From a virus (Duplodnaviria; Heunggongvirae; Uroviricota; Caudoviricetes): a stretch of 37,543 nucleotides of DNA. A program made the translations under genes and the position numbers. The notes under the pieces are model-generated. The model was given only the letters and a program-made list of their open reading frames with translations, ran no database searches and was not told the DNA's origin. Numbering within the stretch: position 1 is the stretch's first letter; every line of letters starts with the position of its first letter. The stretch spans positions 1 through 37,543 of the IMG/VR virus record IMGVR_UViG_3300048904_000041. One strand, given 5' to 3'. Positions 1,078 through 6,806 of this stretch are shown here, piece by piece.

Positions 1078-1512
1078 TCAGTGTTGGGTTTCAGGTGGCA
1101 TATCCATGCTGAATGCACCGGATGCCGTTGCTACAGGAGCAGCCTGATTGTTCTCAAGCTCTTCCGCACCGTCATTGTTACCTTTGTCACGAACGTTGAT
1201 GATCGCCATCTCTTCGCGAAGACAGGTGTTGTTCAGGCTTTCAATTGCCTTTACTACAAACTTAGCCATATCGACTTTTTCTTTAGATGGATCTTTTACT
1301 GGATTACCATCTTTATCTTTACCCGTCATACTTTGACGGATCAGTTCGATTGCTTCACTTTCAATGCTATACAACTTAGTTAGAGTTGTACGCATACGAC
1401 TCTTTGCTTTACCAGAACCTTTTGGACGACCGGCAGGATTACCGGACTTACCTTTTTGAAATCGCGTATCCCTTGCTTCCTCAAGTGGGGATACACCAAC
1501 ATCTTCTACCAT
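1078..1512 (-). CDS. Putative terminase small subunit (DUF5681-type motif)
   Basis: RFQKGKSGNPAGRPKGS motif typical of TerS-like/DUF5681 proteins; upstream of terL; RBS AGGAG. Confidence 0.65.
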   Translation of the reverse strand: MVEDVGVSPLEEARDTRFQKGKSGNPAGRPKGSGKAKSRMRTTLTKLYSIESEAIELIRQSMTGKDKDGNPVKDPSKEKVDMAKFVVKAIESLNNTCLREEMAIINVRDKGNNDGAEELENNQAAPVATASGAFSMDMPPETQH

Positions 1513-1585
1513 GTTAATGCTCCTGTTAATAATTGGACATACAGGATATGTTATAGGATGTCAAGTGATTTGTCAATAGATAGAC

Positions 1586-1617
1586 AAAAGAAACCCCGCA
1601 CTATGGCGGGGTTCTTT
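1586..1617 (-). terminator. Rho-independent terminator
   Basis: 8-bp GC-rich stem AACCCCGC/GCGGGGTT followed by TTCTTTT on minus strand. Confidence 0.8.
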
Positions 1618-1618
1618 A

Positions 1619-1900
1619 TTAAGTTGCAAGTTGTCCAGATGTTCGCTCGGCTGCGAGAATAGCATTGATTTTAGCTACAATTGCATTAATTGCGGTTTGT
1701 GCTGTTGTGATATCGGTAACAGTTTGTGCACCAAGGTTGGCGACAGCAGCAGATTGTTTTACTACACCCAACGCACTTGTTGTTGCGGCTGTTGGTGGAG
1801 TAGATCCTGCAAACAATGCGTCTAGTTCACCAAGCATAGCAGAACCTACAACACCATGCAAAGCTAGAGTTTCGACCAATTCAGAACGATTAGAAGCCAT
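1619..1900 (-). CDS. Head-fibre/decoration-like protein, 93 aa
   Basis: AATTSALGVVKQSAAVA...KINAILAA..SGQLA pattern recalled from the phage head-fibre family; GAGG RBS. Confidence 0.6.
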   Translation of the reverse strand: MASNRSELVETLALHGVVGSAMLGELDALFAGSTPPTAATTSALGVVKQSAAVANLGAQTVTDITTAQTAINAIVAKINAILAAERTSGQLAT

Positions 1901-1924
1901 ATTTATTTCCTCATTTTAATGATA

Positions 1925-1950
1925 CAAAAAAACCCGCACTTGGCGGGTCT
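1925..1950 (-). terminator. Rho-independent terminator closing the tRNA operon
   Basis: ACCCGC/GCGGGT stem followed by a T7 tract on minus strand. Confidence 0.85.
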
Positions 1951-1951
1951 A

Positions 1952-2157
1952 TTCTTGCCTTGCGGCTACAATTCCTTGTCGGGTAATTGTTATTCGTGAC
2001 TACTTCGACCGAAGCTCGTATGTCTTTCGGGGGTCACATAAACTCTAGGTCACCTGTGGGGACTCTTACCCCAATGAACGGGTTGCAAACCGATCCTCTA
2101 AGTTACCGCAGAACCCTCACGGTAAAGTGTTTGTCATATTAGGAGCGACCTAATCAT
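1952..2157 (-). ncRNA. Candidate structured ncRNA at 3' end of tRNA operon
   Basis: No credible ORF; consecutive hairpins ATTAGG/CCTAAT, TTACCG/CGGTAA, TGGGG/CCCCA, GTGAC/GTCAC, ACAATT/AATTGT, GCC-GCAA-GGC. Confidence 0.55.
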
Positions 2158-2158
2158 T

Positions 2159-2234
2159 TGGTGCTGAAGGTCAGATTCGAACTGACGGCTACCGCGTTAC
2201 AAAGGCGGTCACTTAGCCTCTAGCGTACTTCAGC
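2159..2234 (-). tRNA. tRNA-Thr(UGU)
   Basis: Cloverleaf folded by hand; acceptor GCTGAAG/CTTCAGC, C2-G71, T-loop TTCGAAT, encoded CCA; C31-C39 mismatch. Confidence 0.85.
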
Positions 2235-2235
2235 T

Positions 2236-2625
2236 TTATCTCTTTCTCTTGGATGAGACATTTCTAGCTCTGAATGTCGGTGTCATTGCGTGAAAATTCG
2301 GACATAGAATTTTAAGATTTTCGATTTTGCAATTGTGTGCATCACCATCAACATGATCCACTTCAGTCAATGTTCTACCATCTACAGGATGTTTTATATC
2401 CCATGAACAGACTTCACAAGCAGTCCCACGTGTTTCATGCAAATACCGATAGATGTAATGGGATAGGTCAGCCGTTTTACCACCACAACCCTTCTCATCA
2501 CCTTTCATCCAACGATCAATGTAATCTACATATCTCTTTTGTTGTTGGCATTTGTTTGAACAATAAAGACCCATCGTATTCTTCTTTGGTTTGTACTCTA
2601 ATAAGCAACCTTTACAGATAGTCAA
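2236..2625 (-). CDS. HNH endonuclease (free-standing homing type), possibly degenerate
   Basis: CEVC...EVDHVDGDAHNCKIENLKILCPNFH; TTG start with AAGGA RBS; sits between two tRNA genes. Confidence 0.85.
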   Translation of the reverse strand: MTICKGCLLEYKPKKNTMGLYCSNKCQQQKRYVDYIDRWMKGDEKGCGGKTADLSHYIYRYLHETRGTACEVCSWDIKHPVDGRTLTEVDHVDGDAHNCKIENLKILCPNFHAMTPTFRARNVSSKRKR

Positions 2626-2644
2626 GTGTATTCCTTTACTTAAT

Positions 2645-2721
2645 TGGTCAACCTATGAGGATTCGAACCTCAACTCCATCGTCCCAAACGATGTGTGCTA
2701 GCCGTTAAACACTATAGGTAG
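2645..2721 (-). tRNA. tRNA-Pro(UGG)
   Basis: Anticodon arm CATCG-TTTGGGA-CGATG, C1-G72, A73, encoded CCA; U2-U71 mismatch. Confidence 0.9.
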
Positions 2722-2726
2722 ATATT

Positions 2727-2801
2727 TGGTGCACATACAGAGAATCGAACTCTGATTGCCGGGGCGAAGACCCGGTGTCCTAACCGTTAGACGATATGTG
2801 C
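2727..2801 (-). tRNA. tRNA-Glu(UUC)
   Basis: GCACATA/TATGTGC acceptor, CCGGG-TCTTCGC-CCCGG anticodon arm, encoded CCA; atypical C33 and G37. Confidence 0.85.
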
Positions 2802-2851
2802 TTTAGATGGAACGGATAACTTGAATCTTAATGCCGTCTCATCATCTTAAT

Positions 2852-2927
2852 TGGCAGTCCTAACGGGAATTGAACCCGTGTCTCTCGCGTGACAGGCGAG
2901 TATAATCGACCACTATACGATAGGACT
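2852..2927 (-). tRNA. tRNA-Asp(GUC)
   Basis: AGTCCTA/TAGGACT acceptor, G73, CTCGC-CTGTCAC-GCGAG, encoded CCA. Confidence 0.92.
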
Positions 2928-2969
2928 AAATAAGTGCAATTCCCTGATGGTATATTGCGAACCGAACTC

Positions 2970-3096
2970 GGAGACTACGGATGGAATCGAACCATCTACC
3001 CTTACTCAAGCTGCGCAGCCCTTTCAAGTTTTAAACATCATCCACTTCACGCAAAACCAGATGCGCATCCAGAAGACCGTTGCAGATGTCGTAGTC
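2970..3096 (-). ncRNA. tRNA-like RNA 1 (127 nt, expanded body)
   Basis: Perfect 7-bp acceptor GACTACG/CGTAGTC, T arm GATGG-TTCGATT-CCATC, U73-C-C; ~50 extra nt and no canonical anticodon arm. Confidence 0.65.
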
Positions 3097-3104
3097 ATAA
3101 TATA

Positions 3105-3227
3105 GGAGGATCATAGTGGAATCGAACCACTATTAACTAGCCGCTAAACTAGTCTCAATGTGTAAAGTACCCACAACACTCGCTAACTACGTTTCGAACC
3201 GTCGATAGTTTGTGTCACATTTGATCC
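3105..3227 (-). ncRNA. tRNA-like RNA 2 (123 nt, expanded body)
   Basis: Acceptor GGATCA/TGATCC, T arm AGTGG-TTCGATT-CCACT, U73-C-C; internal hairpins replace the D and anticodon arms. Confidence 0.6.
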
Positions 3228-3234
3228 CATTGTT

Positions 3235-3310
3235 TGGCACCCACGGCACGACTCGAACGTGCGACCAACAGATTAACAGTCTGCTGCTCTACCAACTGAG
3301 CTACACGGGT
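3235..3310 (-). tRNA. tRNA-Asn(GUU)
   Basis: Canonical D arm GCTC-AGTTGGTA-GAGC, GCAGA-CTGTTAA-TCTGT, G73, encoded CCA. Confidence 0.92.
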
Positions 3311-3316
3311 ATAATT

Positions 3317-3395
3317 TGGTTGCGTGGGGCTGGATTTGAACCAGCGATTTCTAGCTTATGAGGCTAGTGAGATGACCAGACTTCTCTACCCCGCA
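3317..3395 (-). tRNA. tRNA-Met(CAU)
   Basis: CTAGC-CTCATAA-GCTAG, T arm GCTGG-TTCAAAT-CCAGC, encoded CCA; one extra A in the 3' acceptor strand. Met vs Ile2 not resolvable for certain. Confidence 0.85.
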
Positions 3396-3399
3396 ACAA

Positions 3400-3568
3400 T
3401 GGTCATTTGCAGTTGGGAATTCAGTGGTGCTATTAACCTGCTGACTCCGTATTCCAACCGCTTATTGATGTCACCGTGGAGCAAAGCTCAACACAATGAC
3501 AGCATCCCAAGTGTCACCCAATGCACACAGGAGAGGGATGTACACTGATACATCAACAAGGGAATGCT
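3400..3568 (-). ncRNA. Candidate structured RNA(s) at 5' end of tRNA operon
   Basis: Stems GTCATT/AATGAC, GCGGTTGGAAT/ATTCCCAACTGC, GAGC/GCTC, AGCATTCCC/GGGATGCT, GATGTA/TACATC. Confidence 0.5.
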
Positions 3569-3589
3569 CTATAATCTTTGTATTCGCTC

Positions 3590-3618
3590 ATTATAGCAAC
3601 ATCCCCGTCAGTTGTCAA
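3590..3618 (-). promoter_or_regulatory. Consensus sigma70 promoter of the tRNA operon
   Basis: TTGACA-17 nt-TATAAT, perfect consensus. Confidence 0.9.
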
Positions 3619-3652
3619 TACCCTTGTGAAATATTTTCAAACCCACTCTTCT

Positions 3653-3829
3653 TCAGACATTTGAGTTCCTGTGTCGGTAAAATGTGTTAGATTCAGTAAT
3701 AGACTCAAAAGCATATTCCCATTTGAAATTAGGGTTGTTTTCAAGTTCCTCACGTTTTGCATTTTCGATTAGATCATTGATTTCATCTACTTCACGCATC
3801 ACCTCTTCATAGCTACTATACCCATTCAT
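3653..3829 (-). CDS. Hypothetical acidic protein, 58 aa
   Basis: AAGGA RBS before ATG at 3829. Confidence 0.6.
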   Translation of the reverse strand: MNGYSSYEEVMREVDEINDLIENAKREELENNPNFKWEYAFESITESNTFYRHRNSNV

Positions 3830-3863
3830 CTCGTTTTCCTTATTAGTTAGTTGATAAAATAGT

Positions 3864-3893
3864 ATAGTAGCCCATAACATATCTATTTGTCAA
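3864..3893 (-). promoter_or_regulatory. sigma70-type promoter
   Basis: TTGACA-18 nt-TACTAT. Confidence 0.55.
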
Positions 3894-3896
3894 TAG

Positions 3897-4196
3897 TCAA
3901 TCGTTTCGTGTAACCCAATCAACTGCTTTAACAATGATATCACCGTGACATGACTGAGGCTTGCAGAAGCAACCTAGACGCTTACCTTTCAAAGATCGCA
4001 ACATGTCGTGAGTAACGAATCCTTCTTTCATCTGATGCCACAGATATTCTTTGTACGCAGCAACAGCTTCATCTCGGGTTTCTACCTTGTACAATGCTTT
4101 CGTTTCAGGCAAATGGCTAAATGGATTACCCCAAACAGAACCACGTCCAATGTAAACATCATACTCATCTTTATACTTGTTGACTACTGTAGCCAT
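3897..4196 (-). CDS. DUF4326-family protein
   Basis: VYIGRGSVWGNPF...LKGKRLGCFCKPQSCHGDII signature. Confidence 0.85.
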   Translation of the reverse strand: MATVVNKYKDEYDVYIGRGSVWGNPFSHLPETKALYKVETRDEAVAAYKEYLWHQMKEGFVTHDMLRSLKGKRLGCFCKPQSCHGDIIVKAVDWVTRND

Positions 4197-4360
4197 TCAT
4201 AGCTCCCACAAGGCCCGTCAAGACCTCCCATTGTATATTCTGGATCATGATCTAGGTTTACAGTTATCGCCTCACCTGCGTTATTATAGAGGCTTACAAA
4301 GCCACAAGAAGCGTCTACCAGATCAGCCGAGCAACCCAAATCCAAATCTACACCGTTCAA
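4184..4360 (-). CDS. Hypothetical protein, 58 aa
   Basis: Manual translation MNGVDLDLGC...EWLQ; TTG start overlaps upstream stop; GAGG RBS. Confidence 0.55.
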   Translation of the reverse strand: MNGVDLDLGCSADLVDASCGFVSLYNNAGEAITVNLDHDPEYTMGGLDGPCGSYEWLQ

Positions 4361-4587
4361 ACCAATACCTCACATTCCATGATTGTAAACTTTGTGCAAC
4401 CGAAGCTGCGTTCAAGTGACTTAGCTACAGCAGGGTGACGCTTGATTGCATCGTACATCCGATCAAGGTTCTCAGCCTCACACCAGTCACGCAGGTATTC
4501 AGCAGTCTCTTGACGTAAGCACGTATACAATACCTCGGTAGGCGCATTCACCAACACTTGCCACGCAATCAGTTCATTGTCGTTCAT
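4357..4587 (-). CDS. Hypothetical protein, 76 aa (ETAxYLRDWCEA paralog B)
   Basis: ATGA overlap with upstream gene, GGTGAGG RBS. Confidence 0.75.
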   Translation of the reverse strand: MNDNELIAWQVLVNAPTEVLYTCLRQETAEYLRDWCEAENLDRMYDAIKRHPAVAKSLERSFGCTKFTIMECEVLV

Positions 4588-4754
4588 TCGAAAGCCTCAC
4601 CTTGGAAAATATCAAAATTCTTACCAGTACCCAATTCGATTTCAACTGCTTCACACCAGTCACGAAGATATTTGGCAGTTTCCTCACTTAAAGTGATATG
4701 CATCGTGAACAGGTCTTGTGTATCTAAAACTTCCCAAACTCTTGTTGTACTCAT
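4584..4754 (-). CDS. Hypothetical protein, 56 aa (ETAxYLRDWCEA paralog A)
   Basis: Manual translation MSTTRVWEVLDTQDLFTMHITLSEETAKYLRDWCEAVEIELGTGKNFDIFQGEAFE; ATGA overlaps at both ends. Confidence 0.7.
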   Translation of the reverse strand: MSTTRVWEVLDTQDLFTMHITLSEETAKYLRDWCEAVEIELGTGKNFDIFQGEAFE

Positions 4755-5197
4755 TTCATCCACTCCGGTATGTCTTCGATGTATTCAATCTTACACTGTT
4801 CTGGTTTGTTGTCAACAACTTTCTTGCTTCTTGATTCACGTGTTGTCCTGCTAACCCGCTCTATCTTATACGTTTCAAGGCTTGTGTCAACACCTGTGTA
4901 GTACCAACAGAGATGAGGGCTAATCGAATGATTCCTCTCCTTCTTTGCCTTAACCAGACCTGATGATACCAAGGTCTTCAAAGCCTTTGCTGCCACTCTC
5001 ACTTCAAGGTCAAAGGCGTCAGCGATTGTTGCTTGTGTTTCGTAGTGATTACCCTTGAACTGGTTACACTTGTCAATCATGTGTACGAAGATGTTCTTCT
5101 CAGCCAGATCTAGCTTGTACTGCTTTCCATCATTTCCTATCACCCCTGAGCAAGACATTAGGTCTTTAGGGGCTTTGTAGAACATGTCTACATTCAT
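4751..5197 (-). CDS. Putative winged-HTH DNA-binding protein
   Basis: YETQATIADAFDLEVRVAAKALKTLVSSGLVK HTH pattern; GGAG RBS. Confidence 0.65.
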   Translation of the reverse strand: MNVDMFYKAPKDLMSCSGVIGNDGKQYKLDLAEKNIFVHMIDKCNQFKGNHYETQATIADAFDLEVRVAAKALKTLVSSGLVKAKKERNHSISPHLCWYYTGVDTSLETYKIERVSRTTRESRSKKVVDNKPEQCKIEYIEDIPEWMK

Positions 5198-5681: not shown

Positions 5682-6806
5682 ATGCAAGCACTACAATACA
5701 TCAAGCAACACGGTATCAAGGCACTGACAGATAACCTCGGTATCAAGGTTCGTCGTGATGGCGATCTGATTACGCTTAACTATTGCCAAATCGAAAGCCC
5801 AAAGACTGACCCTGTTGTCATGGAATGTCGGGGATTGACCCTCAACCATGATGGTACTCAAGTTATATCGCGTGGTATGGATCGATTCTTTAATCTAGGT
5901 GAAGCACTGAATGTCGCTCCTGAAATTAATTGGGACGAAGCTGTGCTCTTCGAAAAGGTTGACGGTAGCTTCATCAAGATCTATTGGAACCCTCTTGATG
6001 ACCGTTGGGAAGTCGCTACACGTGGAACAGCATTCGCATCTACCGATTGCATGGGTCACGGTATTACGTTCCGCGAACTGGTGTTCAAGGCCCTTGGTGT
6101 GTCTTCTGAACAAGAGTTCCAAGAATTGATCGACAATGCATCTCTCTACCCTGAATACACATACATGTTCGAACTGACCTGTGCCGAGAACCGCGTGGTC
6201 AAACATTACGATGGTTACAAACTCCACTACCTGATTTCGCGTGATAACGAAACAGGTGTGTATGCCGATGAACGCACATGGCTTAGCATTCATGACGGAG
6301 AAGGTAATCCGCTGTGTGGTCTGCAATTAGAATTTCCTAAGCAGTTCACGTTCAAGTCGGCTGAAGAGTGTCAGCGTGTCTGTGCAGAGCTGAAAGACCT
6401 TGACGAAGGTTATGTTGTCTACCAAGAGGGTGTACCAGTCAGCAAGATTAAGTCGCCAGCATATGTAGCAGTTCATCATATTCGTGGTGAAGGTCTGAAC
6501 AGCACTCGTTGCAAAGAACTGGTATTGTCCGGTGAGGTCGAAGAATATCTGACCTACTTCCCACATGACCGTGAGATGTTGAAACCGTACATCGATGCAA
6601 TGAATTTGCTTGACTGCCACATGGATGCGGTTTATGCTTGTGTCCAGAACGAAGAGGATCAAAAAGAGTTCGCCCGTAAGATCGCAGGAATGCCGTTTAA
6701 AGCTGCGTTGTTCGGTGCCCGTCTGCGTGGTACTACTCCTCGTGAATCCTTTAACCAACAGCTTCTCAGCTATCGTGTACGTCAACTTGAGGAATACTTG
6801 AAGTGA
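5682..6806 (+). CDS. rnlA: RNA ligase 1 (T4 Rnl1-like)
   Basis: Motif I EKVDGS, ECRGL, FELT, EGYVV, KIKS; start reassigned to MQALQ with AAGGAG RBS. Confidence 0.92.
   Translation: MQALQYIKQHGIKALTDNLGIKVRRDGDLITLNYCQIESPKTDPVVMECRGLTLNHDGTQVISRGMDRFFNLGEALNVAPEINWDEAVLFEKVDGSFIKIYWNPLDDRWEVATRGTAFASTDCMGHGITFRELVFKALGVSSEQEFQELIDNASLYPEYTYMFELTCAENRVVKHYDGYKLHYLISRDNETGVYADERTWLSIHDGEGNPLCGLQLEFPKQFTFKSAEECQRVCAELKDLDEGYVVYQEGVPVSKIKSPAYVAVHHIRGEGLNSTRCKELVLSGEVEEYLTYFPHDREMLKPYIDAMNLLDCHMDAVYACVQNEEDQKEFARKIAGMPFKAALFGARLRGTTPRESFNQQLLSYRVRQLEEYLK

Follow-up and report, generated by a model that had tools for sequence, protein, structure and literature searches.

That phage transfer RNA (tRNA) clusters encode small stable RNAs has been known since T4, whose RNAC and RNAD accumulate late in infection and have a function that is still described as unknown (PMC9697503). 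RNAD (species 2, gene rnaD, 119 nucleotides (nt)) and RNAC (species 1, gene rnaC, 139 nt) are non-coding and are encoded on the tRNA strand in the distal part of the cluster, at its end, where they come directly after tRNA-Arg. Another RNA found directly 3′ of phage tRNAs is the theta ribozyme of phages of gut Bacteroidota and Bacillota, which is pseudoknotted and for which a role in tRNA 3′-end formation has been proposed (Kienbeck et al. 2024, PMC10879173). Here we describe element A, an RNA similar in size to RNAC and RNAD that is encoded in the tRNA operon of a Caudoviricetes phage (IMG/VR record IMGVR_UViG_3300048904_000041; 102,477 base pairs (bp), estimated completeness 99%), of which the first 37.5 kilobases (kb), a stretch of 37,543 nt referred to below as the window, were analysed. 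By comparative evidence, element A is a conserved, folded RNA that is co-oriented with tRNAs and bounded by them; it represents a new RNA family, absent from Rfam and of the same kind as T4 RNAC and RNAD.

Similarity of the window to Pseudomonas phage phiPMW is limited to short stretches (megablast), and the window carries six tRNA genes (Met, Asn, Asp, Glu, Pro and Thr, called by ARAGORN), all on the minus strand; a tRNA search of the whole genome returned none beyond these six, and no tRNA-Ser. The operon is bracketed by a promoter and a terminator, both on the minus strand, and the interval under study, 1952–2157, lies between tRNA-Thr and that terminator and is read on the minus (tRNA) strand. 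A sequence-only reading had taken this interval for a single, highly structured RNA of about 205 nt, but it is a composite of several short RNA modules (A–E), in which only 2039–2158 is conserved as a unit and a 23-nt motif at 1968–1990 is conserved separately. The prediction of a structured non-coding RNA directly 3′ of tRNA-Thr is upheld, for an RNA that is conserved and lies on the tRNA strand, in the 5′ ~120 nt only. The features that delimit the operon and the element are as follows.

2158 to 2039, minus strand: element A, conserved pseudoknotted RNA of ~120 nt (covariance model R1: 124.4 bits, E 5.6e-31)
2159–2234, minus strand: tRNA-Thr(UGU), called by ARAGORN and Rfam RF00005; its encoded CCA end sets the 5′ boundary of element A
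3618 to 3590, minus strand: promoter of the tRNA operon, a perfect TTGACA-17-TATAAT (promoter and terminator scan)
1950 to 1930, minus strand: module E, intrinsic terminator of the tRNA operon (same scan: 8-bp stem, 5-nt loop, T-run)

A conserved fold and the helices that compete with it

When the interval was compared by blastn with a phage collection, matches were confined to window positions 2047–2161 and came from 24 records at 70–77% identity, nearly all of them Otagovirus phages of Pseudomonas syringae, with the addition of Pectobacterium phage Bobbio; every one of these matches sits inside a tRNA array. Members were gathered by blastn, by pattern scans of IMG/VR and metagenomes, from the record of phage UNO-G1W1, with the covariance model R1 (refined as R2) and by whole-record scans, the covariance-model scans covering fetched loci only. 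The family so assembled has 21 distinct clear members and 1 probable member, in Otagovirus and in phiPMW-like Pseudomonas phages or uncultured relatives of ~100 kb. The probable member (L053:2355-2479) is divergent (14.9–17.7 bits, E 0.007–0.05) and belongs to a closer relative of the window's phage, and the refined model R2 recovered no further copies in eight phiPMW-like loci. An Rfam covariance-model check, which the sequence-only reading had proposed, assigns element A to no family: the whole window yields only tRNAs at the gathering threshold, nothing falls inside 2039–2158 when positions 1500–4500 are searched at E ≤ 10 (weak terminator-type matches, Trp_leader at 19.4 bits and isrK at 14.2 bits, lie over 1924–2017), and four homologous loci give nothing on the element at E ≤ 1.

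Several candidates were discarded along the way. The pattern ATGACAAAC...TGAGGGTTC found 30 loci, of which L011–L035 are chance matches inside coding genes and L036, L039 and L040 are chance or partial matches, while weak model hits at L010:7326, L006:6290, L037:4351 and L053:72 represent either ordinary tRNA arms or noise. As a separate observation, the unrelated IMG/VR contig L036 carries the exact 22-mer GGGGTAAGAGTCCCCACAGGTA at 4949-4970 (+), in what appears to be a large GC-rich structured region, by chance or as a shared module.

The fold common to the family consists of four hairpins, an A-rich junction and a pseudoknot, which occupy the following places in the window.

2138–2154, minus strand: P1, hairpin AUUAGG-UCGCU-CCUAAU; two-sided changes in 5 of 6 pairs, 99% of alignment cells paired
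2126–2137, minus strand: J1/2, A-rich single strand AUGACAAACACU; family consensus roughly A-R-G-A-M-A-A/G-C
2103–2125, minus strand: P2, hairpin UUACCG-UGAGGGUUCUG-CGGUAA; two-sided changes in 5 of 6 pairs; 11-nt loop L2 at 2109–2119
2076–2096, minus strand: P3, hairpin variable in length and sequence; folds in every member, from unrelated sequences
2057–2073, minus strand: P4, hairpin UGGGG-UAAGAGU-CCCCA with a T-loop-like 7-nt loop; stem nearly invariant, with G-U in three clear members
2047–2056, minus strand: 3′ strand of the pseudoknot, CAGGUGACCU; pairs with L2 at 2109–2116, all cells paired in 20 sequences

In a model-based alignment of 20 sequences (A8), 98.0% of the cells assigned to helices are paired and 10 pairs show two-sided changes, 5 in P1 and 5 in P2. 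The covariation score for these 20 sequences is 0.419 against 0.144 in shuffles, a value that 0 of 500 shuffles attained, and sliding the partners by 1–3 columns lowers pairing to 37–53%. While the stems vary, the loops and junctions are invariant (blocks UCGC, AUGACAAAC, GUGAGGGUUCUGC and GGGGUAAGAGUCCCCACAGG), amounting to roughly 45–60 invariant nucleotides. The J1/2 block AUGACAAAC is invariant in 16 sequences and is replaced by AAGAAAGC or AAAGUAAAC in distant members; the L2 loop is identical in 20 of 20 A8 sequences and in L070, with partial divergence confined to L053, the probable member. P3 differs in nearly every lineage, and element lengths span 108–123 nt. In P4 the loop varies at positions 3 and 4 only (UAAGAGU, UAAAAGU, UACGAGU), and the stem of L053 reads GCAG/CUGC instead of GGGG/CCCC, a change of two compensatory pairs.

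Directly after P4, a strand of the form CAGG-YR-ACCU is complementary to 8 contiguous nucleotides of the P2 loop (GGGUU/AACCU and CUG/CAG), which in the window gives the pairs G2109-C2056, U2110-A2055, C2111-G2054, U2112-G2051, U2113-A2050, G2114-C2049, G2115-C2048 and G2116-U2047. Three substitutions fall in these strands among the clear members, all one-sided and all preserving the pairing (A to G in the window; A to G and U to C in L007). In L053, as read from the alignment, the loop is GGUCAGUG and the tail CAC-A-UGACC, so that a U-A pair has become C-G, a C-G pair has become G-C and one A-U pair has been added. This pseudoknot is well supported by the comparison, if short of proof, because the two-sided evidence comes from a single borderline homologue.

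The pseudoknot or switch pairings suggested by the sequence-only reading are not those that covariation backs. The two strands it named for a long-range helix, AGGUCGCU at 2151 to 2144 and GGUGACCU at 2054 to 2047, are indeed present, and the minimum free energy (MFE) fold of the window sequence does use them, the 3′ strand of that helix being the same as the 3′ strand of the pseudoknot. Across the family, however, only 80.5% of its cells are paired, 2 of its 8 positions are mostly unpaired, 500 of 500 shuffles score as well, and its 5′ strand covaries with a local partner as P1; the helix was rejected because it shows no covariation. The homologue and covariation analysis that had been called for hence speaks for conservation of element A and for P1 and P2, and not for that helix. 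Pairing of the P1 loop with the tail is unlikely, since distant members have swapped the P1 loop for GUGACGAU or UCGACGGG and kept the tail. Other pairings tried and set aside were a short closing stem, GAAU/AUUY, between the 5′ end and the 3′ end, one that breaks down in the register of the window and also in L010 and L037, and the matches of AGAG in the P4 loop with CUCU in the tail and of GAGG in the P2 loop with CCUC, both of which are broken by the variants of the window and L007.

Folding energy gives a different picture. The whole 207 nt of the minus strand have an MFE of −51.4 kcal/mol against a mean of −50.9 for dinucleotide shuffles (z = −0.11), the plus strand gives z = +0.37, and the 3′ 123 nt, which include the terminator, give z = −2.04. 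Thermodynamics alone does not demonstrate a functional RNA in the interval. The description of the interval as highly structured does not survive this comparison, and a folding energy no better than that of shuffled sequence, which the sequence-only reading had said would speak against it, is what was found for the interval as a whole. The 5′ 120 nt are nevertheless upheld as an RNA because of their conservation and covariation, so that the original observation is partly confirmed and its interpretation partly supported.

Position among tRNAs and possible roles

Every clear copy of element A starts 0–1 nt past the 3′ end of a tRNA or of a remnant that resembles a tRNA but is not recognised as one, and that upstream end is CCA in all clear copies except those of Kremar, VCM and Psxphi15, where a remnant ends in CC. 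In these three phages the remnant before the element is unannotated, has the T-arm GGGUUCGACUCCC and ends in ...CUCC (L003:1616-1742 (-), with an equivalent in L004). The identity of the upstream tRNA changes from phage to phage, being Ser(GCU) in many members, Thr in the window, His in L070, Asp in L053 and Pro-like in L066, and the 5′-most nucleotides of the element vary as well (GAAUG, AAUG, AACAG, AAUCA). Most copies end 0–3 nt before a tRNA-Ser(UGA/AGA); the window's phage has kept element A though nothing tRNA-like follows it. Element A thus has what is seen in the small stable RNAs of tRNA operons, being non-coding, lying within a tRNA cluster or closing it, sharing the strand of the tRNAs and having boundaries set by tRNA ends. 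Of the biogenesis first proposed for the interval, release by tRNA processing agrees with the coincidence of the 5′ end with the tRNA CCA end in all homologues that follow an intact tRNA, but a 3′ end set by the terminator does not agree with a conserved unit of ~120 nt whose 3′ end, in most relatives, abuts the next tRNA.

The comparison with the stable RNAs of T4, which had also been drawn from the sequence alone, is apt in position, coding status and strand, and it extends to some detail: RNAD begins with AAUGA one nucleotide after CCA, and its 5′ hairpin, CCGG-GUCGCUA-CCGG, with the loop GUCGCU(A), resembles P1. From 7 sequences (T4 and six T-even phages) the conserved blocks of rnaD were taken as AAGAAaCCGG-GUCGCUA-CCGG-UAAGUCGUCGGACUGAU-GUUCCCUG ... 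UCACAGCAGAAACGGCGC. Against the T-even rnaD sequences, R1 found nothing with default filters and, with the filters off, only the first hairpin at 5–9 bits (E 0.25–7). RNAD lacks the invariant P2 and P4 loops of element A, and the shared hairpin is probably a coincidence, because the GUCGCU loop is not kept in the distant members of the element A family, which carry the replacement P1 loops given above. The two are regarded as the same kind of RNA, not as established homologues. In the T4 rnaD homologues themselves (L046–L052), GUAAGG after GUUCCCUGA covaries with CCUUAC before AUCACAG (AUAAG/CUUAU in JS98, AUAGU/ACUAU in JE01), which suggests a long-range helix around a variable hairpin. Closer at hand, two tRNA-like RNAs of ~125 nt at 2970–3227 of the same operon share with element A its strand, size, non-coding nature and position between tRNAs, but they are not matched by R1 and have canonical GGUUCGAWUCC T-arms, of which element A has none.

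We consider it somewhat probable, at about 55%, that element A is an excised stable RNA that binds a partner in trans. The element would be co-transcribed with the phage tRNAs from the promoter at 3618 to 3590, and a cut at the CCA terminus of the preceding tRNA would create its 5′ end. RNase P, cutting where the next tRNA begins, would create the 3′ end in most relatives; in the window's phage that end might be made by another endonuclease, or the RNA might be left joined to modules B–E up to the terminator. Once released, the RNA would persist as a stable species, as T4 RNAC and RNAD do. The least certain step, and a speculative one, is that the invariant loops and the A-rich junction might bind a protein or an RNA that handles tRNAs, with the element acting as a decoy or as a cofactor.

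Four points weigh against this account. Element A taken alone (the 5′ 121 nt) has a z of −1.43 and so does not fold significantly better than shuffled sequence. The pseudoknot strands of the clear members are almost invariant, which leaves two-sided support to L053. The element is dispensable in some lineages, as whole-record scans of six complete ~100-kb relatives did not find it at E ≤ 0.01; because of this, and because a search with the exact pattern found no copy in 185,579 prokaryotic species genomes, it is regarded as phage-borne and accessory. Finally, the likeness to tRNA is one of topology only: there is no match to RF00005 at E ≤ 10, no 3′ CCA, and AA instead of UC at loop positions 2-3.

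That likeness deserves a closer look. Only a single A separates the 3′ strand of P4 from that of the pseudoknot helix, and by analogy this suggests that the two helices could stack as the T-arm and acceptor of a tRNA do. P4 has 5 bp closed by G-C and a 7-nt loop of the form U-A-(A/C)-(G/A)-A-G-U, which would fit the generic T-loop motif with its U at position 1, purine at position 4 and A at position 5. The 3′ tRNA-like structure (TLS) of turnip yellow mosaic virus (TYMV; RF00233) likewise builds the helix that stacks on its T-arm-like hairpin by a pseudoknot instead of pairing its 5′ end with its 3′ end. The resemblance to the TYMV structure lies in this pseudoknot-built helix and its stacking, whereas element A lacks a 3′ CCA and an anticodon-like arm and draws the helix's 5′ strand from a loop that lies upstream of the T-like arm; no match to RF00233 falls in element A, and the one weak hit is on tRNA-Asp. 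Nor does the remainder resemble a tRNA: ARAGORN calls no tRNA in 1952–2158 or in the homologous places, the P2 loop has 11 nt and the P1–P2 junction ~12 nt, whereas a cloverleaf has a 7-bp acceptor stem made by its two ends and a 7-nt anticodon loop, and the P2 stem closes the tRNA-like 5′ strand into a loop. We see it as unlikely that element A mimics the acceptor and T-arm of a tRNA by means of its pseudoknot, serving as a decoy for a tRNA-targeting defence enzyme of the host or as a recruiter of a tRNA-handling enzyme, or that it is a new self-cleaving ribozyme that trims the upstream tRNA exactly at the CCA. If it were a mimic, its frequent position between two tRNA-Ser genes would be functional and not accidental.

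Much of the genomic context could also be accommodated by a folded spacer that acts in cis only, directing or insulating the maturation of the flanking tRNAs, for instance by presenting the CCA end and the RNase P site, or by blocking 3′ exonucleases, and that is then degraded. The CCA end of a tRNA, or of a tRNA-like remnant, is in every case fused to the element, the distance from the element to the 5′ end of the next tRNA is usually 0–3 nt, and the element occurs in a part of the genome where tRNAs are gained and lost (PMC9796965). Its invariant nucleotides and its pseudoknot, however, far exceed what a spacer needs, other tRNA pairs of the same operons are only 4–10 nt apart and do without such an element, and in the window it is retained where no tRNA follows, in a genome that has no tRNA-Ser at all; we hold a spacer of this kind to be improbable. 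In all members that stand behind an intact tRNA the 5′ boundary is fixed right after CCA, and it might also be set by the RNA itself, if it were a new self-cleaving ribozyme cutting at that point and freeing the upstream tRNA with its CCA, by analogy with the theta ribozymes, which are related to that of hepatitis delta virus (HDV) and provide precedents directly 3′ of phage tRNAs (PMC10879173). A compact, pseudoknotted RNA of ~120 nt with many invariant unpaired nucleotides would suit a small ribozyme, and the phiPMW region found by megablast is annotated with a polynucleotide 5′-kinase/3′-phosphatase that could resolve a 2′,3′-cyclic phosphate. Yet theta ribozymes adopt the nested double pseudoknot of HDV, whose P1 begins at nucleotide +1 and pairs with the strand that follows P3, with a catalytic C in J4/2, and element A, which is found in Pseudomonas phages, has neither that fold nor a match to any Rfam ribozyme family at E ≤ 10. 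On inspection, alignments A3 and A7 show that AUGACAAAC, the strand following its first hairpin, does not complement the 5′ nucleotides, which are left without a partner there; P1 is a simple covarying hairpin. The 5′-most nucleotides, moreover, are not strictly conserved, and CCA is encoded by only 4.5% of theta-adjacent tRNAs (PMC10879173), whereas here it is encoded and processing of the 3′ end by the host would suffice. Cleavage by the element itself is, in our judgement, less likely again than the spacer.

A decaying tRNA or other neutral remnant, a conserved DNA site, or a small coding gene on either strand would be in keeping with a location inside a tRNA array, with four hairpins in cloverleaf order and with the "hypothetical protein" coding sequence that some records annotate over the element (e.g., H5, H18 and H22). 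These readings are already disfavoured, and we think any of them very improbable. Invariant loops and compensatory stems across phages that share only ~75% identity point to an RNA fold as the target of selection; neither ARAGORN nor RF00005 recognises a tRNA; and because G-U pairs occur in P1 and P2, the fold is specific to the tRNA strand. The protein-coding reading is excluded, and the annotated coding sequences with it, because no frame was found to be open in all members and their lengths differ by indels that are not multiples of 3. The explanation that we favour is the trans-acting, excised RNA.

The end of the operon and what the family adds

Modules B–E, which separate element A from the next gene, are operon-end elements in their own right and lie outside the element A family. 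Apart from the terminator (module E), they are as follows.

1996–2037, minus strand: module B, a stem GUGAC...GUCAC around the alternatives CCGAAAG/CUUCGG/GAAG; part of the MFE fold
1968–1990, minus strand: module C, 23-nt hairpin ACAAUU-ACCCGACAAGG-AAUUGU (ACAAUUACCCGACAAGGAAUUGU); a single occurrence in the window
1957–1966, minus strand: module D, GNRA hairpin GCC-GCAA-GGC; hairpin kept in relatives, stem different

The hairpins that had been named from the sequence are present, all on the minus strand (GCC-GCAA-GGC, for example, at 1966 to 1957), and the competing segments CCGAAAG, CUUCGG and CUUC-GGUC-GAAG all lie inside 2037 to 1996, which is to say in module B; this module is lineage-specific, and neither the phage collection nor any of the fetched relatives contains a sequence similar to it. 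Module C stands apart through its conservation: 13 IMG/VR contigs from ~100-kb relatives (L054–L066) carry its 21-nt core without a change, in each case behind the last tRNA or tRNA-like RNA (2–4 nt past the CCA) or behind a lineage-specific module, and upstream of a terminator. Because its stem and loop are both invariant, covariation cannot tell whether module C acts as RNA or as DNA; the nick motif of Pseudomonas phages, WACTRTGAC (PMC11780129), is unrelated to it. Counterparts of module D occupy the same place as GCC-GAAA-GGC, UGUCAC-GCAAU-GUGACA and GUGAC-ACAUAA-GUCAC.

Two further segments were noticed upstream of the 23-nt motif in relatives. L058, L059 and L066 have a module of ~65 nt there with the stem UUUGAUG/CAUCAAA, which is UUUGAAG/CUUCAAA in L058, a compensatory change; it holds the position of module B without any sequence similarity to it. 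A conserved module, AUGCAGAGAGU...ACUCUUAAACGAUUAGGU.AAAA.GACCUGCAUCUGC.CCCA, is shared by L063 (~4575-4645 (+)) and L059 (~6560-6640 (+)), in which it sits after the last tRNA and before the 23-nt motif; it looks like a further operon-end RNA.

The gene that follows, at 1900 to 1619 on the minus strand, encodes a head-fibre-like protein of 93 amino acids (PHROG 4366, E 3.3e-07; PF11133 below the cut-off). It starts ~30 nt after the terminator stem, lies between the terminators at 1950–1930 and 1614–1591, and was found in the promoter scan to have no sigma-70-like promoter of its own. From this arrangement, expression of the gene may require transcription that reads through from the tRNA operon, and modules C–E may influence that read-through, since the gene begins so soon after the terminator and lacks its own promoter. 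Further upstream in the operon, between tRNA-Pro and tRNA-Thr, an open reading frame for an HNH endonuclease of 129 amino acids (2236–2625, minus strand; PHROG 1271, E 1.2e-13) recalls the homing endonuclease gene segB inside the T4 tRNA cluster.

The comparison corrects the structure first proposed for this interval and sets apart a second operon-end element, the exactly conserved 23-nt hairpin. Because the element A family occurs in culturable phages of P. syringae and P. fluorescens (16Q, Kremar, VCM, phiPsa267, REC and UNO-G1W1), deletion, end-mapping and pull-down experiments are practical, and the complete relatives without the element offer natural comparisons. To the small stable RNAs of phage tRNA clusters, the work adds a defined RNA family that has a covariation-backed fold and a genomic grammar that runs from tRNA CCA to element to tRNA.

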